DNA of 64,000 nt from the sequence record PZ386965.1. The stretch is one strand, 5' to 3'. Made by a program: the position numbers and the translations under genes. Of this stretch, positions 4,321 through 48,220 are shown piece by piece; position 1 is the first letter of the stretch; every line of letters starts with the position of its first letter. The notes beneath the pieces are model-generated. The model searched no databases, had not been told where the DNA came from, and saw only the letters and a list, made by a program, of their open reading frames with translations. The stretch is from a phage.

Positions 4321-7032
4321 TCAAAAATCGAACATATCGAACAGAGATGCTTTCTTCTCGTAATCGAGTTTCGCTGCTGATGTGAATCCTTCAAGTGGTT
4401 TAATAAATGTCTTCTCAAGGAGAACAGTGTAGTCCATCCAATGAAGTACGTCGTCTTTAATTAAATCTGTGATTTCAGTACCAGAAGGCCATGCGATACA
4501 TTTATCACCGAATGGGTTTCCTTCACGTAAAGGCAGAACATATACTTTTTCACCTTCTACAACTTGTGGAGCATCAATATTACCTTTGATAGCCCGGTTA
4601 TACGTCAGAATTCCACGAATATGGAACGGACATTTAGGGCCAGGGAATCCACCAACATCATATTTAGCAATGTTATTCGCAGAAGATACCGACGCGATGC
4701 TAATATAATTCAATTGACGGAATTCTTTTTCAAACTCTTTAAAATATTCTTGTAATGATTCTTCACCTTCTTGAAGCATACGACGAATACATTCCTTAAG
4801 AGCTTTCTGTACTGCTTTAGGAGTCGAAGATTTCTGAGTCTCGAGACCCATGATTTTGAGTTTAGGCTCAGCGTATCTGGTTCCTTCCATATCCCACACG
4901 TTTAATGCATAACGTTTCTTACCAGTCCAAAATCCGCCAATACCTTTAGAACCGAGCGGAGGGCCAGCAATAGCTTCTCGGTCCATGAACATTAAGTGTT
5001 GTTTATTGTTCATGTATTCACACATTTCACGGAAACCTCTATCAATAGCTGGTTCCATACGTTCACGTGCAAACTTATCTAAGAAGTCTACCCAATGGTT
5101 AGTATCACGGAATTTAGATTCACCAACCTTATCAATAATTTTATCTGCAGATACGTAAATAGAGTCTGTATCACCATAAAGAACGAAAGCTTCACCTTCT
5201 GTACCACAAACTTCATTCAGATATTCATTAACTTTACGTTCAATCCACTGTAAAGCCATTTGTCCGAATGTTGTGATTGCAGTAGCATTACGCAAATCAT
5301 AATAACGGAACCAGACGTTGCCAAGTGCACCATAAAGTGAGTTGATAAGCAATTTACGGTTAATTTGTGCAGTCATACCTGCAACTTCAGTACGTTGAGC
5401 TCTAAACAACATTTCATTAAGAGATTTAGCAGACAACTTTTTAATCTTTTCTTTAATCTCATCACTGAAGTCGAAACGATAATCAACATCTAATGGTTCG
5501 TCAACAGAAAGATTAGGATTATGCAATGCCTCTTTAATTATTTCACCGTTACGTTGAGCTGCAAGCATGTAACCTTTATGTTCTTTACGTTGATTAAAGA
5601 CCTTAGTGATTTCAGTTGGAACTACACCATCACGATCTTTATAATACATCATGCCGTTAGGAGAACAACTGTACACATCTGAAGGACGTTCAGCGATTGC
5701 GTTAATATAATCATGCAATGGAGCTACTTTAAACGTTCCTGCTATTGTTTCCGGGCTAATATTCACTTGGCGAATAATACTTGGATACAGAGATGTAAGG
5801 TCGAAACTCATTACATATTTGTATCGATTTGGAATAGGTTCCTTAACAAAAGCGCCAGGATAAGGTTGAACCGGGTGAGAACGACCTTGTGGAATCACCT
5901 TGTTCTGCTCTTTAAGGCTATTAAAAATAATAGCATCCCATGTTTTAATTGGGCTAAACACAGATTGAATCTGTATCTTAGCATAATAACCCATGTCCAA
6001 ACTCAAGTTGATGAACTGACGCTTAGCATCAATTTGCAATACACGATACACGTCGATAATGTTATAAGAAATATATCGTTGGTGATTGCTTTCACGAAGC
6101 TTAGAAATAGGGCCGTCATATTTCAGTTTACCAACGTTCAATTCAAATTCTGAAATGTAATCCAGAGAATACGACGGTTGATTGGTAAAAGAGAATTTTT
6201 TGTAAAGGTCGATATAATCAAGAACAGAGATACCGAACAATGTAATGATTTCACGAGAACCATACATGTTTTCGATAACTTTAACACGAGTTTTACGATG
6301 TGGTGATAAACGTTTCGCAGTAGATTCGCCAAAAATATTCTTGATTCTGTTATACACATATGGAATATCAAATGACTCAACGTTCCATCCAGTCAAAATG
6401 ACAGGAGTTTTCTGTTGCCAGAAGTTGAGATATTCCATCAACAATTCTTTTTCGTTATCGAACGGCATATAAATGATTTTATCGATAATTTCAGATGGAA
6501 CTTCATCACCACCTTGTTCTTGAAGCTTAGCCGCAATTTCGATAGACCATTCTTCTACATTACCATACGGAGAATTCAATAGATCAAATACGTAGAACCT
6601 GTCGTCAATTGAGTCATAATGGGTGATAGCATCAATCGGATGTTTTGCTTGTGACGGCTCAGGGAACCCATCCGGAGATGTTACTTCGATGTCGAAGTTA
6701 GCCACACGAATTTTTGTATGGTCGTATTTGATTTCATAGTTATAAGTGTCAGACAAATACGCCAATTTGAAATCGTCCATGCCAAGTGCTTCAAGTCCGA
6801 TATCTTCCATGCGTTTAATCCATTGGGAGGCATCACGCATATTAGCGAACAACTTACGAGTACACGGCTTACCGTAGATATCGAAATATTTCGTAGCCTG
6901 ACTTTCTGGACAATGAGCAAACAGTGATGGTTTATATTCTACTTCACGAGTACGTTCACGGCCATTAGAATCGATGTAACGTTCAAAAATTGAATCACCA
7001 ATCTGTTCAACCGTTAAGTAAAATTCTTTCAT
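4321..7032 (-). CDS. 43: DNA polymerase (family B, T4 gp43 type)
   Basis: 903 aa; exonuclease FDIEVTS and polymerase YGDTDS motifs; N-terminus MKEFYLTVEQIGDSIFERYID matches RB69/T4 gp43 as I recall it. Confidence 0.97.
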   Translation of the reverse strand: MKEFYLTVEQIGDSIFERYIDSNGRERTREVEYKPSLFAHCPESQATKYFDIYGKPCTRKLFANMRDASQWIKRMEDIGLEALGMDDFKLAYLSDTYNYEIKYDHTKIRVANFDIEVTSPDGFPEPSQAKHPIDAITHYDSIDDRFYVFDLLNSPYGNVEEWSIEIAAKLQEQGGDEVPSEIIDKIIYMPFDNEKELLMEYLNFWQQKTPVILTGWNVESFDIPYVYNRIKNIFGESTAKRLSPHRKTRVKVIENMYGSREIITLFGISVLDYIDLYKKFSFTNQPSYSLDYISEFELNVGKLKYDGPISKLRESNHQRYISYNIIDVYRVLQIDAKRQFINLSLDMGYYAKIQIQSVFSPIKTWDAIIFNSLKEQNKVIPQGRSHPVQPYPGAFVKEPIPNRYKYVMSFDLTSLYPSIIRQVNISPETIAGTFKVAPLHDYINAIAERPSDVYSCSPNGMMYYKDRDGVVPTEITKVFNQRKEHKGYMLAAQRNGEIIKEALHNPNLSVDEPLDVDYRFDFSDEIKEKIKKLSAKSLNEMLFRAQRTEVAGMTAQINRKLLINSLYGALGNVWFRYYDLRNATAITTFGQMALQWIERKVNEYLNEVCGTEGEAFVLYGDTDSIYVSADKIIDKVGESKFRDTNHWVDFLDKFARERMEPAIDRGFREMCEYMNNKQHLMFMDREAIAGPPLGSKGIGGFWTGKKRYALNVWDMEGTRYAEPKLKIMGLETQKSSTPKAVQKALKECIRRMLQEGEESLQEYFKEFEKEFRQLNYISIASVSSANNIAKYDVGGFPGPKCPFHIRGILTYNRAIKGNIDAPQVVEGEKVYVLPLREGNPFGDKCIAWPSGTEITDLIKDDVLHWMDYTVLLEKTFIKPLEGFTSAAKLDYEKKASLFDMFDF

Positions 7033-9816: not shown

Positions 9817-10233
9817 TTATGCAGCAACCATTTGCTTTTTGATAGCTTCAGGCAGTGATTCAATATATTCTGGAATTTTAGAAGCAACAATTTCGCCAGC
9901 TGCAATTAGTTGTTCGTCGGCATCAACACAATAGAAATCTTCCAGACGCTCAGAACCATCTTTATCAAGAACGATTTTTCCACCTGCTTCAATAGAATCT
10001 TTATAGTGCTTACGCATCAGATGAATCCACATATCAGATACATCGTTATCAATAAAACCATAAATCATAAAACGAGTTTCTTGTGGCAAAGATTGAAGCT
10101 TTTTAGCACTTGCGTCATCACAATGCAGGACCCATGCTTTACGAACACGATTATGGTTATGCGGGTTAGCGTCAGTACGGATAGAAGTAACTTTCAGATC
10201 AGCAGCGGTAAAACCTTTAGCAGTAGTAAACAT
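9817..10233 (-). CDS. rpbA: RNA polymerase binding protein RpbA
   Basis: Position between 45 and 45.2; size similar to T4 RpbA. Confidence 0.7.
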   Translation of the reverse strand: MFTTAKGFTAADLKVTSIRTDANPHNHNRVRKAWVLHCDDASAKKLQSLPQETRFMIYGFIDNDVSDMWIHLMRKHYKDSIEAGGKIVLDKDGSERLEDFYCVDADEQLIAAGEIVASKIPEYIESLPEAIKKQMVAA

Positions 10234-10245
10234 ATTATTTCTCTC

Positions 10246-10437
10246 TTATTCGTAGAAGTCAGTAACTGTCCATGCGGAATTGCGATTAGACATTATTTTA
10301 TTATACTCATCTTTAAAAGCAGATTTGAGCATTTGTTCAGTAACAATATGTTCTTCACCTGAAAACGTATTGGTCAAAACATATTTTTTAATTTCAGGGA
10401 CAACGAGAAGATGTTGTCCGGTTGAATACTCCGCCAT
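10246..10437 (-). CDS. gp45.2-like small protein
   Basis: 63-aa ORF in T4 45.2 position. Confidence 0.6.
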   Translation of the reverse strand: MAEYSTGQHLLVVPEIKKYVLTNTFSGEEHIVTEQMLKSAFKDEYNKIMSNRNSAWTVTDFYE

Positions 10438-10461
10438 TATAAATCTCCGTGTTTAAAGCAA

Positions 10462-10469
10462 TATAAATA
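10462..10469 (+). promoter_or_regulatory. late promoter TATAAATA upstream of HNH endonuclease gene
   Basis: Exact TATAAATA about 45 nt upstream of ATG at 10515. Confidence 0.5.
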
Positions 10470-10514
10470 GGTTTATCAATTTATCTGTTGCTGTATCAAA
10501 TAAGGATTTAGTAA

Positions 10515-11231
10515 ATGAATTATAACTCAATATACGAAAAGCTTATTACCAATGCTAAATCAAGAAGTTTAGATGGTTATACAGAACGTCATCACATTAT
10601 ACCACAATGTTTAGGTGGAAGTGATGATGCTTCAAACTTAGTAGACTTAACACCAGAAGAACATTATTTGGCACATCAACTGTTGGTAAAAATCTATCCA
10701 GATAATGCCTCTTTAATATACGCTGCTCGTATGATGACCATATCATCTCCTAAAGCAGATAGAAGCAAAAACAAATTATTTGGATGGCTTCGTCGTAAGA
10801 ATCAAGAAGTTCAAAAGAACAAAGAATTCACGGCTGAAACCCGTAAGAAAATGTCCGAGTCTGCAAAAAATAAACCAAAGATTACCTGTCCACATTGTGG
10901 TTTAACTGGAACTGAAGGAAACATGCGTCGTTGGCATTTTGATAATTGTAAACAAGGTCCAACGCCTAAAATAGTAAAATTATCTGATGATGAAAAACAG
11001 AGGATAAGTTCTAAACTTAAAACAATAGAGTGGAAACTCCACACATGTGTACACTGTGGTCTAGAAGGAAAAGCTTGCAATATAGTTCCTCATGAGAAAA
11101 ACTGCAAACTTAATCCTAATAGAATAAAACCTAATGTAACAATAGTGGAATGTCCATACTGCTCTAAAAGTGGTTCTATATCAAATATGAAAAGATGGCA
11201 TTTCGATAATTGTAAATATAAGCCTCATTAA
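10515..11231 (+). CDS. free-standing HNH homing endonuclease with three Cys-rich repeats
   Basis: HNH core HHIIPQCLGGSDDASNLVDLTPEEHYLAH; three repeats of CxxCG...RRWHFDNCK; only plus-strand gene inside a minus-strand block. Confidence 0.85.
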   Translation: MNYNSIYEKLITNAKSRSLDGYTERHHIIPQCLGGSDDASNLVDLTPEEHYLAHQLLVKIYPDNASLIYAARMMTISSPKADRSKNKLFGWLRRKNQEVQKNKEFTAETRKKMSESAKNKPKITCPHCGLTGTEGNMRRWHFDNCKQGPTPKIVKLSDDEKQRISSKLKTIEWKLHTCVHCGLEGKACNIVPHEKNCKLNPNRIKPNVTIVECPYCSKSGSISNMKRWHFDNCKYKPH

Positions 11232-24021: not shown

Positions 24022-24427
24022 TATTTTTCCTTTCATCGATTAAATATGCAACGCCAAATACAATACATGTAATAAAACCTGTGATACAGATAGAAACCAA
24101 CAACACTGTACCAAAGAACCAAATCAAGTTATCTTTAGTAGTTTGTTTGATATCCATCTCACGAATTTCTATAGCTATCGTATCACCTTTATTCAGAAGC
24201 GTATAAAATGACGGTGATACACGCCTGTCAAAAACTCGTCCTTGCTCATCTTTATAGACTGCAATAAATTCTAATTTAGAATATTTTCCTGTAGATTGGC
24301 CTGAGATTAATTCCACTACCTCCACAGGAATTACTTTAGTTTCCATGTAAGTATTCTGGCTGTTCCAAATGAATGGAATAATAGCAAAAACTAAAGCTGC
24401 GATAAAACAACGAAGGCTATATCTCAT
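24014..24427 (-). CDS. membrane protein (nrdC.1-like position)
   Basis: N- and C-terminal hydrophobic segments. Confidence 0.55.
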   Translation of the reverse strand: MRYSLRCFIAALVFAIIPFIWNSQNTYMETKVIPVEVVELISGQSTGKYSKLEFIAVYKDEQGRVFDRRVSPSFYTLLNKGDTIAIEIREMDIKQTTKDNLIWFFGTVLLVSICITGFITCIVFGVAYLIDERKNNV

Positions 24428-24732
24428 TATAATGTTCTCTCAAATTTGTGGAAGCATTTACGGCATTTCAATTTCAAGTTATCAGTGGTCCAGTTAACCA
24501 GTTGGACTTGGATAGTTCCACATTCCGGGCATGGATGTTTTGCTGCCGATTTGGCAGCATTTTCACGTCGTTCAACCATTTTCATTATTTCGTTCCATGC
24601 TGGAGGAACGAACTCTTCTTCACCGTGGATTTTATCTCGCTGAACAAATTCAATCTTTGAACTATCGTCAATAAACTTAACCAAGCCATGATTAGTGCTC
24701 ATATCAATATCCTCTAAAAGACGTAGGTTCAT
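24427..24732 (-). CDS. zinc-ribbon protein
   Basis: CPECG ... CRKC cysteine pairs at C-terminus. Confidence 0.55.
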   Translation of the reverse strand: MNLRLLEDIDMSTNHGLVKFIDDSSKIEFVQRDKIHGEEEFVPPAWNEIMKMVERRENAAKSAAKHPCPECGTIQVQLVNWTTDNLKLKCRKCFHKFERTL

Positions 24733-25673
24733 TATAACACCTCAATGGCATTTCGTAAACCGTCCGCTTTCGCATTCAGAGCTTTTAACGATTTAGTCTG
24801 TTCTTTAATCTGAGCTTCGACTTCTTTCAGACGAGATTTGAGATATTCACGTTCTTCGCTCAGGTTATCAACCTTTTCAACTTTAGGTTCTTTAGGCTTA
24901 TACTCGTTAGGATTCTTCAGTTTAATTCGAATTCGAGAACTGAATAACATTGAACCGTTATCTTCGGTTTCGTCGAACATTTCAACAACATCCATAGTCT
25001 GTAACATCACGCAGAGTTTATAAGACAACGAACGAATAGTTTTGTTGTGCTTATTAATTTCTTCGGCTTTCATGGCACCGAGATTACGTGAGTAGTAATA
25101 AGGAACCTGGATATCAATTGATAATGATGCGTTACCATTACCTGTTGGTTTGAATACTGCAGTAACCCAATCTTTAACATGAACTTTATTTGTACGATCA
25201 TCGCCGCCTGTGAATAATTTACGAGAATGTTTAAAAAGCATATTCACTTGGTTATTGAATTCACAAGCAAATTTATCAGCAAATTTAGTTTCAGGAATGG
25301 TAGATAACCAATCAGCCAAATGAGTCTTTTTAACATCATTAACAATAGTGAATTCAACCAAATCGGTTTTAGATGTCACAGATTTAATAAAGCTCGGTTT
25401 CATAAAGTTTTTAATGTTATCGCGAGCTACAGTAGAAGATAATAAACGAGAACGTTTGAACCATTGAAGCAGCGTCCCTAATGAATGAGAATATGCATTT
25501 TGAGTATCTTTACAGATATGATTTTCTTGGTCCGTGTATGTACCAAAATCTCGAAGAATACCACTTACTACATCTCGGTGTGGAATATCAAATCCTAGTG
25601 CACCAGAAGCGCGCTGAGCATGAACGTTAGCGATAAGACCGGCAAAGTATTCAATGTAATGTGAACGTGTCAT
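24732..25673 (-). CDS. hypothetical 313-aa protein with C-terminal coiled coil
   Basis: Long ORF; heptad-like tail; own upstream promoter cassette. Confidence 0.65.
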   Translation of the reverse strand: MTRSHYIEYFAGLIANVHAQRASGALGFDIPHRDVVSGILRDFGTYTDQENHICKDTQNAYSHSLGTLLQWFKRSRLLSSTVARDNIKNFMKPSFIKSVTSKTDLVEFTIVNDVKKTHLADWLSTIPETKFADKFACEFNNQVNMLFKHSRKLFTGGDDRTNKVHVKDWVTAVFKPTGNGNASLSIDIQVPYYYSRNLGAMKAEEINKHNKTIRSLSYKLCVMLQTMDVVEMFDETEDNGSMLFSSRIRIKLKNPNEYKPKEPKVEKVDNLSEEREYLKSRLKEVEAQIKEQTKSLKALNAKADGLRNAIEVL

Positions 25674-25698
25674 AATATTTTCCTCTCGTTAAGATAGA

Positions 25699-25738
25699 AA
25701 GATTATACTCTAACCATCCTTGGTTGTAAACTGATTTA
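25699..25738 (-). promoter_or_regulatory. early promoter / stem-loop cassette
   Basis: Minus strand GTTTACA-N17-TATAAT with AACCA..TGGTT hairpin in spacer. Confidence 0.55.
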
Positions 25739-26695
25739 TGATTTTAATGCATTCATTGCGTTAAAAAGTTTAGAGTATTGCAACTGGAGATTGGTCACCA
25801 CCTGTTGAGCATCACGAAGCTTAGCTTGTGCCTTATCAAGTTCAGCAGACAGTTGGTCTACAGTAGCCTTGATTTGATTGTAATAATAATCTTCAGCCGG
25901 AAGAAGGTCATTAGAAACATTTAGTTTTACTGCCGACAGTTTGCACACATTTGGCAAACCTTTAAACATACCAGATTGTGCTGGAGAATATGCACCTAGA
26001 ACCTCTGCATTACCGACTGGTGTTGCTGTAATATTGCCTTCAAACAATGCATTTTCCTTTTTAAGATTTTGATAGTATTCAGAGTCTTTGTGCCACCATG
26101 GTGCAGGAACCTTTTTACCAATAGATACACGAGCTTGGATAGCGATATGGCCCTTATTCTTGATAAGGTCGACAATATTAAGCTCACGAGAATAAATTGC
26201 TTTAATCTGGTGGATATTATCACCTAAAACTTCCAACGCTTGGTGGAATACACGAGCAACGTTATCATTCTTAGGTTTATACGTAAGAGTGAACTCATTC
26301 TCACTGATAACCATGATTTCCAACTTATCGTAAGTATATTTCAAATGTTTCATGTTAATTGCTTGAGGACGAATACGAGAAGCAATGGCCATCAGATTGT
26401 TAAGGTTATTCCGGAACTGCTTAGCGAAATATTGTCCTTCACCGCCAATACAAAAATTACGAAGTTTCTGTTTGGCCAGTAAACGACTGAACTCGCCATT
26501 TTTAATGAACTCTTTAACGGGTGTGTTAGTAACGCATTCAAATTGAGTAAACTTACGAGAATTAATCCCATAATACGAACAGATTTCTTCAATCTCTTCA
26601 GGAGTCTTTACAGGCATACGGATAGGATTAGGTCCTGGGGTATATGCGTTCGAGGTAAATTCTTTGATAAGTTCTCTACGTGTAATAAAAGCCAT
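25736..26695 (-). CDS. hypothetical 319-aa protein with C-terminal coiled coil
   Basis: Long ORF; same architecture as neighbours. Confidence 0.65.
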   Translation of the reverse strand: MAFITRRELIKEFTSNAYTPGPNPIRMPVKTPEEIEEICSYYGINSRKFTQFECVTNTPVKEFIKNGEFSRLLAKQKLRNFCIGGEGQYFAKQFRNNLNNLMAIASRIRPQAINMKHLKYTYDKLEIMVISENEFTLTYKPKNDNVARVFHQALEVLGDNIHQIKAIYSRELNIVDLIKNKGHIAIQARVSIGKKVPAPWWHKDSEYYQNLKKENALFEGNITATPVGNAEVLGAYSPAQSGMFKGLPNVCKLSAVKLNVSNDLLPAEDYYYNQIKATVDQLSAELDKAQAKLRDAQQVVTNLQLQYSKLFNAMNALKS

Positions 26696-26718
26696 TTTAT
26701 ATTCCTCATGTTGAAAAA

Positions 26719-26758
26719 TTTATTATACTCCAACCATCCTTGGTTGTACATCATTCCT
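26719..26758 (-). promoter_or_regulatory. early promoter / stem-loop cassette
   Basis: Near-identical to cassette at 25699. Confidence 0.55.
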
Positions 26759-27746
26759 TAAGAAGTTTTACTACTTGAATAAGATTAGCTCGTTCTGTTT
26801 TATTTTTACCATTTAAGCCTGCTAATCGTGAGATTTCATCGTCAGTCTGTTGAATAGTTACATTAAGTTCGTTAATCAAAGCTTCAAAGTATTTGATTTG
26901 CTCAGCATGTTTTGATTCAAATTTCTGAACCGGAATAACGTCTTGGTTTAGTTCGTCAATAAGGTCTTTAAGAGCATCTTCTTGGTTGATATCGTATTCA
27001 ACTTCTTTTATTTCTTCAACTAGCTCGTCTTTATATCTAACGTCTTTTAGTCCTGGTGCTGGTCCTGAAATCTCTTCTTTAAGAGTACAAACATACCCAA
27101 TACGGTATCCAGTGCCGTCTCGCTTGATATCAACTTCGTCGATAAATCCACAATGTTTGAGACCAGAGCCGATTAGGTCAAAATATCCTTGACGACGTCC
27201 TTCAAACGTTACACGAACTACTAAGACAGTTTTGCCTGCAATCTTTTGAAGCTCACATTTATAAAAGTCAGTTGAACCTGAATAACGTGGATGAGTTTTA
27301 AAGTTCATCTGACGATCTAGGCCCATTTGTAAACGTGCTGTTACGGCCATAAAACGTGTTTGGTTCTCGTTAAGATGAGCAACAATCCATTTCAAAGGCA
27401 TTTTACACTGTTCACGACCGAACAAATCAGTACGTCCTAGATTACGCAGGATGTTGTTAGAGTTAATCATCGACAGAACGTTAAGTTTATTCAGCGCGCT
27501 GAAGATTCCATCAGCCATTGATTTTCCGTAGCCTTTACACGCTTTAATAAGCGCTCGCGGTAGATTAGTATAGATTTCAGACGGCATATGAAAATCAAAT
27601 TTACTAACCAGTAATTGATGAACTTGGATAGCAATTCGTTCATAATTAAGCGCTCTGCGATCATTATGGTCTTTAAACCACACTTTAATCTGTGAAGCAC
27701 ATAAACCGTTAATTTCATGTTTTATCGCATCAGATGTAATGCTCAT
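26751..27746 (-). CDS. hypothetical 331-aa protein with C-terminal coiled coil
   Basis: Long ORF; acidic then coiled-coil tail. Confidence 0.65.
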   Translation of the reverse strand: MSITSDAIKHEINGLCASQIKVWFKDHNDRRALNYERIAIQVHQLLVSKFDFHMPSEIYTNLPRALIKACKGYGKSMADGIFSALNKLNVLSMINSNNILRNLGRTDLFGREQCKMPLKWIVAHLNENQTRFMAVTARLQMGLDRQMNFKTHPRYSGSTDFYKCELQKIAGKTVLVVRVTFEGRRQGYFDLIGSGLKHCGFIDEVDIKRDGTGYRIGYVCTLKEEISGPAPGLKDVRYKDELVEEIKEVEYDINQEDALKDLIDELNQDVIPVQKFESKHAEQIKYFEALINELNVTIQQTDDEISRLAGLNGKNKTERANLIQVVKLLKE

Positions 27747-27808
27747 AACTATTTCCTCAGATTGAATTGGAACTCAAAACCATTATAACCCGTCCTTGGG
27801 TAAAGCGT

Positions 27809-28336
27809 TTATGCGTGAACCGTCTTTAAACGTTCTTCAAATTTCCGAAGAGTACTAATACGTTCTGCTTTCTGTTTTGTATAGTTTGCAATACGTTCTG
27901 AAGTGAGAGCGTATCGTTCGTTTACTGTTTCTTTCATGAAGTCAGGGATTTCACGAGAAGCTTTAATTTCATCAAACTTGTCGAGTACTGCCTGGTCTTC
28001 AGCGATTAAATTTTCATACATCTCGATATCTTTCTTGATAAACTCGATATCTTCCTGAGTTACTTTGGATAAACGAGATGCTTTATCCTTTTTGTACTGC
28101 TCGTTAGTTTCACGAGACCAGAATAATGTACGTTTTTTGTTAGTGTTTTTGTAGACTTCCACAATTCCAACTGAATCGATGATAACAATCCAATTCCAGC
28201 GAGATTTGAAAATCTGACCTCCATCCACAGTAATCTCGTTACCATAAGCAACGTCATTAAAGAACTTGCTCTGTGCTTCAGATTTAAATTTACCGTCGTT
28301 ATAATTTACCAGGTTGAAAATATCTTTAGCGTTCAT
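27809..28336 (-). CDS. hypothetical protein
   Basis: 175-aa ORF. Confidence 0.55.
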   Translation of the reverse strand: MNAKDIFNLVNYNDGKFKSEAQSKFFNDVAYGNEITVDGGQIFKSRWNWIVIIDSVGIVEVYKNTNKKRTLFWSRETNEQYKKDKASRLSKVTQEDIEFIKKDIEMYENLIAEDQAVLDKFDEIKASREIPDFMKETVNERYALTSERIANYTKQKAERISTLRKFEERLKTVHA

Positions 28337-28820: not shown

Positions 28821-29822
28821 TTATTTCAGTAAAGTAACTTCCGAGATTTCTTCCCAACCATCTTTATCAGTTGAAATAAAATCTGCTACATAAAGAGCCG
28901 TACGTAATGATACATTGCGAAGACGAGATACGTTAGCCTTCATCCAGGACAATGCTTTATACGTTTCTGCATCCGTCAGACCACGTTTCTGCATCATGTC
29001 AGTAGATAATATTACATCTTCAACTCGAACCATAATCTCTTCATTAGAGTGTACTCCAAGGTCGAGATACACTGAACGAGATACTAAAGCTTGAAGGTGT
29101 GGAGCAAGTTTCGAACCCCGTTCTAACTCTTTATCGATATCAACGTTTGTAATGAAAACGATAGTACCTTCAAACTCAAATTCTTTATCAATACCCTTAT
29201 CCTCGAGATAAGATGACGCAGTGCTCCAACAAACTTTGCGTTTATCTCCGGTATCTAATGCGGCTTTAAGAAGGTTCAGGATGTCCATATCTGAGAATAC
29301 GTCAACGTCATCGATTAAGAGAACGCTGTCTGCATCACGGTTGAGCCAAAGTTGTTCGTAAAGGCCAATACCAGAGATTTTACCATTAATGCTTTTGTAT
29401 TTGATGAAACCATTATCATTAGCATTACTAAGTGCTTTATCCAGAGAATACGTCTTACCAATACCAGCTGCACCTGAAATAATGAGTGAACGAATTTTGC
29501 CATCGATAATGCCATTCGTCATCATGTTCATTACTTTAAAGCGTTTGTTGATACGAGTTTTCATATCTTCAGTGCTTTCAACAACTGCAACTGGTGATGT
29601 CTCAACTCCTTCCATTACGATGTCTGATTTGAAGACCCATACTCCACGTTCAGAACCATCAATCATAACGAAAATTTTACCGTCACCTAAGTGAGAACAT
29701 TCAGGATTAAGCTTTGCCGGGAACCAGGTCTTTGTGGCAACATAAGAACCAGAGATTTCGTTATTACGATAGATACCTTTTTTGATTTGAACGTTGAACA
29801 TTTTATTCTCCAATTTACTCAT
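28821..29822 (-). CDS. P-loop NTPase (Walker A/B ATPase)
   Basis: Walker A SGAAGIGKT, Walker B VLLIDDVD; 333 aa. Confidence 0.7.
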   Translation of the reverse strand: MSKLENKMFNVQIKKGIYRNNEISGSYVATKTWFPAKLNPECSHLGDGKIFVMIDGSERGVWVFKSDIVMEGVETSPVAVVESTEDMKTRINKRFKVMNMMTNGIIDGKIRSLIISGAAGIGKTYSLDKALSNANDNGFIKYKSINGKISGIGLYEQLWLNRDADSVLLIDDVDVFSDMDILNLLKAALDTGDKRKVCWSTASSYLEDKGIDKEFEFEGTIVFITNVDIDKELERGSKLAPHLQALVSRSVYLDLGVHSNEEIMVRVEDVILSTDMMQKRGLTDAETYKALSWMKANVSRLRNVSLRTALYVADFISTDKDGWEEISEVTLLK

Positions 29823-47364: not shown

Positions 47365-47410
47365 ATTATCCATGAGAGCATTATACTCTGCTCTCAAGAG
47401 TTTGTACACT
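47365..47410 (-). promoter_or_regulatory. early promoter / stem-loop cassette
   Basis: GAGAGC..GCTCTC inverted repeat around TATAAT, TGTACA -35 on minus. Confidence 0.5.
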
Positions 47411-47691
47411 TATTTGTACGAATTAATAATCTCTTCCATTTTATCCAGAACATGGATATCGATTATACGAGGAAGTGCCGAAAGATTAGAACCGTCGAAA
47501 GATTTAAGGTCTTCCAAAATAATATTTTCAATGGCCTTTAAAGCTTCCGCAGATTCTGATGCAGAATTAAATTCAGGAATTTCTCCAAAAAGACGTAAGA
47601 ATGAACCAAAGTATTCTGCGGCGATTTCTTTAGCTTGTTCGATATCAGACTTAAACATTTTGTTTTCCTCATTTGTTGGTGGAGTAATCAT
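47410..47691 (-). CDS. hypothetical acidic protein
   Basis: 93-aa ORF. Confidence 0.5.
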   Translation of the reverse strand: MITPPTNEENKMFKSDIEQAKEIAAEYFGSFLRLFGEIPEFNSASESAEALKAIENIILEDLKSFDGSNLSALPRIIDIHVLDKMEEIINSYK

Positions 47692-47715
47692 ATCACCATC
47701 CTTGGCGTTTGTACA

Positions 47716-47989: not shown

Positions 47990-48154
47990 TTAGATGTAAA
48001 TTATTTCAACGTCACCTTTAGCTGCTTTATAACCTTCAGCCCAAGATACAACAGAGTTTTTATCTGAGGATTCAAATTCAGGCATTGGACTTTCACCAAT
48101 ATTCACACAGTATGTTTCTTCATTTTCATCGAACCAAATAATTAAAGTAGTCAT
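47990..48154 (-). CDS. small hypothetical protein
   Basis: ATG with AGAGGAG RBS directly downstream of cassette at 48171. Confidence 0.4.
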   Translation of the reverse strand: MTTLIIWFDENEETYCVNIGESPMPEFESSDKNSVVSWAEGYKAAKGDVEIIYI

Positions 48155-48170: not shown

Positions 48171-48220
48171 TAGTTGATAAGTCTATAGTAACACCGTCCT
48201 TGGTGTTTGTACATCATTTA
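48171..48220 (-). promoter_or_regulatory. early promoter / stem-loop cassette
   Basis: GATAAGTCTATAGTAACACC...TTTGTACA. Confidence 0.45.

Follow-up and report, generated by a model that had tools for sequence, protein, structure and literature searches.

Three tandem nrdC.x genes of a Mosigvirus as a candidate family of fast-diverging, paralogous counter-defence proteins

What are three adjacent genes of similar size, each behind its own promoter and with no evident resemblance to one another, doing in the accessory region of a T4-like phage? The genes lie in a 64,000-nucleotide stretch of phage DNA (PZ386965.1; hereafter the window) from a T4-like phage of the genus Mosigvirus (RB69 group), at 24732..25673 (wA, 313 residues), 25736..26695 (wB, 319 residues) and 26751..27746 (wC, 331 residues). 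Sizes and positions are exactly those given in an initial annotation of the window, which did not give the strand; all three open reading frames (ORFs) run on the minus strand, the ORF listing holds no competing long ORF opposite them, and a GAGGAA-type Shine-Dalgarno sequence lies 6-9 nt 5' of each ATG. The ~4-kb region of the trio is 96-97% identical to that of Shigella phage ESh15, Escherichia phage SA79RD and many others. The initial annotation saw in the trio a diversifying host-takeover or anti-defence locus, and this reading is essentially right, most of it being already known under other names, namely T4 nrdC.3, nrdC.5 and nrdC.6, the PeSL cassettes, and the anti-Dsr1 activity of NrdC.5. 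Our analysis adds support for the view that one divergent superfamily with a conserved tail unites NrdC.3, NrdC.4, NrdC.5 and NrdC.6 with single homologues from other genera of the Straboviridae.

On family profiles and gene order, the trio can be assigned as the Mosigvirus orthologues of T4 nrdC.3, nrdC.5 and nrdC.6, contrary to the initial annotation, which had found no match to a known T4 protein. wA is 56.6% identical to T4 NrdC.3, is syntenic with its gene, and matches phrog_1435 over its full length (residues 1-313, E 8e-103), with PF26897 found on every wA homologue. wB matches Pfam DUF7235 (PF23882) at profile positions 1-307 of 307 (393.8 bits against a cut-off of 30, E 7.8e-118), as T4 NrdC.5 does end to end (420.6 bits, E 5.3e-126), and also matches phrog_2351 (E 8e-98). 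The direct identity of wB to T4 NrdC.5 is 24.5% (E 2e-8), and the match is reciprocal, the T4 protein recovering the Mosigvirus type as a tblastn query (E 2e-9). Comparison of the window with T4, KIT03 and IME08 places wB between nrdC.6 and nrdC.3/4, upstream of nrdC.2 and nrdC. wC matches phrog_2257 (E 3e-127), its homologues carry PF26899, and it is 33% identical to KIT03 NrdC.6 over residues 27-330 (E 1e-32). A fourth T4 gene, nrdC.4, is a paralogue of nrdC.3 (hhalign 87% probability; both in phrog_1435) and is lacking in Mosigviruses.

The resemblance to T4 thus extends to gene order, and in the case of wB to full-length membership of the same Pfam and PHROG family, genomic position, size and the conserved C-terminal helix. 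The differences are that a promoter cassette stands before wB, while nrdC.5 of T4 abuts nrdC.6; that wB has a different, hypervariable linker; that the acidic linker of wC is longer; and that the T4 reference NrdC.6 has lost its tail by frameshift. In that reference (NC_000866), nrdC.6 (10067-10894) is frameshifted near its 3' end, and the tail, ...GLSSKAKSEREKLIKIVDLLKS*, is still encoded out of frame at 9997-10075, in the 70-nt gap before nrdC.5; the gene is intact (295 residues) in KIT03, ACG-C40 and IMG/VR relatives.

Beyond these assignments, word-indexed homologue searches for the trio returned only close relatives (at least 55%, 81% and 68% identity). When 1.84 billion representatives were searched exhaustively with HMMER, the wB profile retrieved only its own cluster and one fragment, indicating a very narrow family; at this database size T4 NrdC.5 did not reach E 0.001. 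In the phage collection the families are confined to about 580-740 Tequatrovirus and Mosigvirus records, plus Dhakavirus, and an IMG/VR scan yielded four loci, all from Mosigvirus or Tequatrovirus. Pfam, NCBIfam, PADLOC and Rfam gave no meaningful match of the trio to enzyme, defence or RNA families, and in a sequence-profile search of all PDB chains the best values were E 0.23, 0.41 and 0.98, all of them spurious helical matches.

GenBank records widely label all nrdC.x genes, including the trio, as 'thioredoxin'. This identity was rejected, since there is no thioredoxin motif and no Pfam match, and the label is an artefact propagated from the nrdC gene-name prefix. Virion or structural proteins were likewise discounted, as early promoters are present and a late promoter is not, and so was a phage-carried defence system, for which PADLOC gave no match.

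Are the three genes related to one another? Pairwise BLASTP among wA, wB and wC found no similarity (E > 2), in agreement with the earlier observation that the heads are too diverged to align, and Pfam and PHROGs keep the three families separate. When hhalign was first applied to shallow family alignments, only NrdC.3 versus NrdC.4 was supported; the remaining pairs gave P = 0.006 to 0.45, with NrdC.3 versus NrdC.5 (P = 0.006) providing a hint. Since the shallow profiles were weak and the databases held close relatives only, the family profiles were enriched with the syntenic region of other T4-like genera, anchored on the conserved neighbour NrdC.10. In Dhakavirus IME08 the order is likewise NrdC.6, an NrdC.5-family gene (orf82) and NrdC.4. 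Karamvirus EnA02 gp82, Moonvirus KM16 gp109 and Lazarusvirus Konradin gp116 are ~330-350-residue proteins encoded just upstream of nrdC, with a C-terminal helix of the same kind as the trio, and Jiaodavirus LilPanda gp192 groups with NrdC.3/4 (jackhmmer, 4e-21).

With the enriched profiles, hhalign connected NrdC.3/4 to NrdC.5 through the tails (92% probability, E 6e-7) and, after removal of the tails, through the heads (77% probability, E 2e-5), the two matches being collinear. A leave-one-family-out superprofile, built from all groups except the group under test, detected NrdC.6 at E 5.5e-6, NrdC.5 at 5.8e-9 and NrdC.3/4 at 4.3e-14, and on heads alone at 3.7e-4, 7.7e-7 and 3.6e-8, respectively; the best value among negative controls from the same genomes (30 unrelated single ORFs and 11 unrelated family profiles) was P = 0.041. 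In leave-one-out searches with hidden Markov models (HMMs), the excluded family was the top non-member match for NrdC.5 and for NrdC.3 (E 3.6e-4), while NrdC.6 reached only E 0.11-0.18. Iterative jackhmmer searches from single heads joined NrdC.3, NrdC.4 and LilPanda gp192 and did not reach NrdC.5 (E 0.017) or NrdC.6. In the joint alignment, motifs recur in the same order along the proteins, beginning at the N-terminus and reaching the final turn of the tail: M(K)TR..Y, K.S.LLS....A...LRNF/Y, F..N...L..A.RL..GDDR, L...L..MDVVE and, in the tail, L..A(L/I)..L(K). Thus the HHalign comparison suggested in the initial annotation gave little with shallow profiles and links all three genes with enriched and leave-one-family-out profiles.

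The order of secondary-structure elements tells a similar story. Independent AlphaFold runs for wA (24 sequences) and wC (5 sequences) each predict five N-terminal helices, a loop and two helices ending near residue 141-156, after which come a beta-hairpin, whose first residue is 162 in both models, one more helix and another hairpin; an extended linker without structure then leads to the C-terminal helix. The agreement in element order corresponds to z = 3.0, a level attained by 1 of 1000 permutations of the elements. Both models also match, weakly, the Acinetobacter-phage protein E5EYP0 in BFVD.

An account without kinship, in which the three are ORFans of separate origin, alike in length and in their C-terminal amphipathic helix through convergence or shuffling of the tail module, with the profile matches arising from composition or forced alignment, would explain the null BLASTP result, the weak first-pass hhalign values and the three separate Pfam and PHROG families. 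It could also draw on the quality of the models, whose mean predicted local distance difference test (pLDDT) values of 50.2 (wA) and 46.8 (wC) are poor, so that a common fold of the heads is not demonstrated; on Foldseek, which found no cross-family match between the NrdC.3 and NrdC.5/6 models and, for the low-confidence wA and wC models against BFVD and PDB, returned own-family matches or noise; and on NrdC.6 in particular, whose link rests on a superprofile in which divergent sequences were forced into one MAFFT alignment, wC as a single sequence scoring only P = 0.017. We nevertheless regard this account as improbable, because the head-only links persist without tails, the left-out families surface as top HMM matches, the matches are collinear on the same motifs, all controls stay at P of 0.04 or above, EnA02 gp82 and LilPanda gp192 provide bridging sequences between families, and the order of secondary-structure elements agrees. 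Common ancestry of NrdC.3, NrdC.4 and NrdC.5 is therefore well supported by profile comparisons and secondary-structure order, and NrdC.6 probably shares it.

The common plan proposed for the proteins begins with an N-terminal domain made of helices and an alpha/beta core, in which a long helix is followed by one or more beta-hairpins, a helix and a further beta-hairpin. A linker that varies and is probably disordered joins this core to a C-terminal amphipathic helix of 40-55 residues. The wA tail (residues 272-313; 24735..24860, minus strand) is a single long amphipathic helix ending ...GLRNAIEVL, modelled as a helix at 272-312 with pLDDT 60-76. The wB tail (residues ~268-319; 25739..25894, minus strand) is free of proline and glycine, rich in heptads, ends ...KLFNAMNALKS, and is the block most conserved with T4 NrdC.5. 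The wC tail (residues ~273-331; 26754..26930, minus strand) has helices broken at LAGLNGKNK and ends ...LIQVVKLLKE; AlphaFold places the helices, with low confidence, at 273-294, 302-312 and 316-330 within an overall span of 257-330.

The strongest heptad contrast falls in the tail of all three proteins (wA 278-305, wB 271-298, wC 281-308), with peaks that are only weakly significant against shuffles (p = 0.085, 0.04 and 0.445). Residues D, E, K and R make up 40%, 22% and 29% of the last 45 residues of wA, wB and wC. For the heptad-rich, charged coiled coils of the initial annotation, the location of the heptad maximum agrees, at weak significance, and 'charged' fits wA better than wB or wC. 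Between genera the tail is the best conserved part and the linker the least conserved: tail and head identities are 74% and 58% for wA (T4 NrdC.3), 40% and 26% for wB, and 59% and 30% for wC (KIT03 NrdC.6). The wB linker (residues ~216-257) is rich in indels and hypervariable even among Mosigvirus orthologues that are otherwise at least 87% identical, for example ...ATPVGNAEVLGAYSPAQSGMFKGLPNVCKLSAVK versus ...VAPTIGTINAASTQPVMFNGTPS.

What might such proteins do? The one phenotype in the literature searched belongs to NrdC.5. A T4 clone missing a block of accessory genes does not grow on ECOR17 or on MG1655 carrying ECOR17 dsr1, and expression of nrdC.5 alone, described as an 'uncharacterized early gene', restores plating on dsr1 cells (Srikant, Guegler, Laub, eLife 2022, PMC9391042). 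Dsr1 is a SIR2-domain protein thought to deplete nicotinamide adenine dinucleotide (NAD+), still called poorly characterised in 2026, and the literature searched names no mechanism for NrdC.5. The initial annotation had counted clear homology to T4 nrdC.x proteins of routine function as an argument against its own view; the homology is clear, and a routine function is not what NrdC.5 displays in counteracting Dsr1. Common ancestry, the anti-Dsr1 result together with a neighbourhood rich in counter-defence genes (Pin and Gp49.2), fast divergence and variable copy number all support a diversifying host-takeover or anti-defence locus. We give slightly better than even credence to the reading that the trio is a fast-diverging, early-expressed paralogous family of counter-defence proteins.

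On this reading, the three genes would be ancient tandem paralogues of a superfamily that includes T4 NrdC.4 and single members of ~270-350 residues at the same position elsewhere, and each would be switched on as soon as infection begins, by a promoter cassette of its own, early or middle (PeSL or PmSL). The cassette hairpin and its repeated sequence would probably serve as recombination points for gene gain and loss. The fast-evolving head would bind and block a particular host immune protein; in wB, of the NrdC.5 lineage, the head may target a Dsr1-type SIR2 NADase, so that the NAD+ pool is spared and infection can go on. The targets of wA and wC, for which an anti-defence role is likewise conjectural, would differ from that of wB. 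The better-conserved tail may mediate oligomer formation or engage a common partner or function shared by the paralogues. Early expression in this phage would be expected from the promoter consensus and from the description of nrdC.5 as a T4 early gene. The lack of an enzyme signature in Pfam, NCBIfam, PDB sequence profiles and Foldseek favours a binder over an enzyme.

Small early proteins encoded in accessory regions offer a precedent. DSAD1 (a DSR2 inhibitor), the anti-OLD protein Gp49.2, TifA and Dmd are, like the trio, small early phage proteins clustered in accessory regions, and each neutralises one host immune protein, a function that the trio may share by analogy. DSAD1 binds its SIR2-type NADase, which for NrdC.5 is a conjecture, and it differs from the trio in architecture, in its target (DSR2, not Dsr1) and in sequence, the PDB-chain profile search having found no similarity below E 0.2.

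Several points weigh against the favoured reading in addition to the poor models, the absent cross-family Foldseek match and the uncertain footing of NrdC.6 described above. The heptad statistics are weak for wC. Direct binding of Dsr1 by the NrdC.5 lineage is a guess, the mode of inhibition being unpublished in the literature searched, and at 24.5% identity between wB and T4 NrdC.5 conservation of the target is uncertain. The literature searched gives no function for NrdC.3, NrdC.4 or NrdC.6. Finally, the ratio of nonsynonymous to synonymous divergence (dN/dS) of the trio, 0.12-0.19, denotes purifying selection, with no sign of positive selection.

An indirect or enzymatic mode of action, in which the family removes or masks the phage trigger of Dsr1 or repairs the NAD+ pool in the manner of NARP pathways, is a slim prospect in our judgement, more so than the absence of kinship discussed above. 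NAD+ reconstitution pathways can overcome DSR1, the published NrdC.5 result is purely genetic, and several polar residues are invariant between wB and T4 NrdC.5 (R95, S106, R107, N114, K116, E132, N133, K140); however, the proteins matched no enzyme family in Pfam, NCBIfam, PDB sequences or PDB folds and lack a nucleotide-binding motif, and extreme head divergence combined with a conserved coiled-coil tail would be unusual for enzymes.

It is also conceivable, though we think it unlikely, that counter-defence is confined to the NrdC.5 lineage, and that wA and wC are host-takeover or housekeeping accessories acting on host transcription, nucleotide metabolism or the envelope, sharing with wB only ancestry or a position in the hyperplastic region. 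The silence of the literature searched on phenotypes for NrdC.3, NrdC.4 and NrdC.6 is consistent with such a division, as is the presence of metabolic genes (nrdC, nrdD/G, tk) in the same region, and the tolerance of a frameshifted nrdC.6 in T4 lab strains and of natural deletions fits any dispensable function. Conversely, the proteins' shared architecture and conserved tail, together with their common layout for early expression, point to a single type of task; genes engaged in an arms race typically show such rapid divergence and changing copy number; and the known neighbours are anti-defence proteins, namely Pin (a Lon inhibitor) and Gp49.2, whose inhibition of OLD was demonstrated in 2026 (PMC13096335).

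A broader proposal would extend the favoured counter-defence reading to NrdC.3-6 and their syntenic homologues in Dhaka-, Karam-, Moon-, Jiaoda- and Lazarusvirus as one modular Straboviridae superfamily, with a coiled-coil 'handle' for oligomerisation or a shared partner, re-targeted heads, wA and wC directed against defences other than Dsr1, and birth and death of copies driven by PeSL elements; we hold it tentatively, as a possibility well short of even. Most T4 accessory genes are still without a function, and one nrdC.x family with a member that defeats a sirtuin-type immune protein would turn three 'hypothetical proteins', found in some 600-750 sequenced coliphages, into candidate inhibitors of other defences, wA, wC and their T4 counterparts being nominated as such. 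The design suggested here, a variable head on a conserved coiled-coil tail, could possibly help to extend the range of hosts infected by T4-like phages used in therapy.

How fast does the trio evolve? Identity between the Mosigvirus and T4-type proteins is 57% for wA, 24% for wB and ~30-33% for wC, as against 83% for the flanking NrdC.8 and 78% for NrdC.10. Within Mosigvirus (window versus phage moha), dN is 0.023, 0.099 and 0.067 for the trio and 0.003-0.016 for NrdC.8, NrdC.10 and NrdC.11. The trio therefore diverges far faster than its neighbours. The dN/dS values given above indicate that the genes are functional, though they evolve 2-30 times faster than neighbouring genes, and the elevated synonymous divergence of the trio hints at mosaic exchange.

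Copy number across related phages is equally variable, from four in Tequatrovirus and three in Mosigvirus and Dhakavirus to about one in ACG-C40, and each sampled Karam-, Moon-, Jiaoda- and Lazarusvirus genome has one recognisable member. In ACG-C40, a natural deletion at 5721-6129 has removed most of nrdC.5, all of nrdC.4 and most of nrdC.3, leaving a 71-residue NrdC.5 N-terminal stub and an NrdC.3 tail remnant that is 84% identical to the wA tail. Tail-only remnants also occur in phages Pinarejo and TH54.

What controls the genes? Each is preceded on the minus strand by a predicted promoter with a stem-loop in its spacer. The wA cassette (25702..25731, PeSL type) consists of GTTTAC, the hairpin AACCA-AGGA-TGGTT (25712-25725) and TATAAT, in full GTTTAC-AACCAAGGATGGTT-AGAG-TATAAT. 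The wB cassette (26722..26751) has (A)TGTAC, the hairpin CAACCA-AGGA-TGGTTG (26731-26746; -6.9 kcal/mol, z -1.98) and TATAAT, in full ATGTAC-AACCAAGGATGGTT-GGAG-TATAAT. These two share 25 of 26 positions between ACAACC and TATAAT, and they rank first among the sigma-70-like matches of the region (promoter scan 11/12 for wA and 10/12 for wB). The wC cassette (27782..27806, PmSL-like) is a middle-promoter-type variant with the same core, GCTT-TACCCAAGGACGGGT-TATAAT, laid out with a GCTT MotA box, the hairpin ACCC-AAGGAC-GGGT (27788-27801) and TATAAT. The initial annotation's near-identical cassette before each gene therefore holds for wA and wB, the wC element being merely related. In OL960576 the site equivalent to the wA cassette is annotated as a promoter and the wC equivalent as a T4-like middle promoter. 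Cassettes are present in all Mosigvirus loci, the wC cassette being kept in every one examined, and the same element lies upstream of T4 nrdC.3 and nrdC.4 and of IME08 nrdC.4 and nrdC.6.

The cassette core, ACCAAGGATGGTT, has six matches at no more than two mismatches, against 1.4 expected, and the window contains five cassette copies (25722, 26742, 27798, 47704 and 48202). The last two, with minus-strand hairpins at 47690-47706 and 48189-48206, read ATGTAC...CCAAGGAYGG...TATGAT/TACTAT and precede small early ORFs (47410-47691, 93 residues, and ~47990-48150); the cassette family is thus not specific to the nrdC.x trio.

Among the cassettes the AGGA loop is invariant and the stems vary with compensation (CAACCA/TGGTTG, AGCCA/TGGCT, CCACA/TGTGG, CATCCA/TGGATG, and one G.U pair). 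In the covariation analysis 88% of cells were paired, versus 65% in shuffles, 0 of 500 shuffles were as good, and 4 of 6 pairs change on both sides, with some ascertainment bias arising from the part of the sample that was found by a stem-requiring search. These compensatory changes point to selection on RNA or DNA structure. The hairpins have low stability (-3.5 to -8.2 kcal/mol) and no U-tract, which argues against a terminator function.

By these properties the cassettes are the published PeSL/PmSL elements of T4-like phages and not a new feature: a short stem-loop lies between the -35 and -10 elements of a sequence that fits the T4-type early promoter consensus (TTTAC...N17-18...TATAAT) or the Mot-box middle one, they precede variable genes, and they are repeated in a hyperplastic region whose flanked genes vary in presence among related phages. 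They differ from the types quoted from the 2014 paper in the conserved AGGA loop and the covarying 5-6-bp stems. PeSL and PmSL have been proposed to mediate modular shuffling in the hyperplastic regions of T4-like phages (Arbiol et al. 2010, Comeau et al. 2014; PMC2839356, PMC4122927).

The trio forms part of the T4 'nrdC.x' block, in which the order on the transcribed strand is nrdC.11, nrdC.10, an nrdC.9-like gene, nrdC.8, wC, wB, wA, nrdC.2, an nrdC.7-like gene and nrdC. The NrdC.10-like protein (28821-29822, minus strand), a P-loop protein of AAA/STAND-like type, is kept in 1312 phage records across Straboviridae, Vibrio and Acinetobacter phages among them, and in several jumbo phages, a far wider spread than that of its neighbours.

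Immediately downstream of wA, the NrdC.2-like protein (24427-24732, minus strand, 101 residues) has two CxxC pairs (CPEC...CRKC), which suggests a zinc ribbon, and matches weakly a PHROG labelled 'NrdC-like thioredoxin'. Inside the end of the wA tail-coding sequence, a good match to a T4-early-type promoter (GTTTAC-N18-TATAAT with an upstream TG) occurs at 24731-24759 on the minus strand. Its -10 box overlaps both the wA stop and the nrdC.2-like ATG (ATAATG), and a transcript would consequently begin downstream of that ATG; the match may have arisen by chance, or it may drive a more distant gene.

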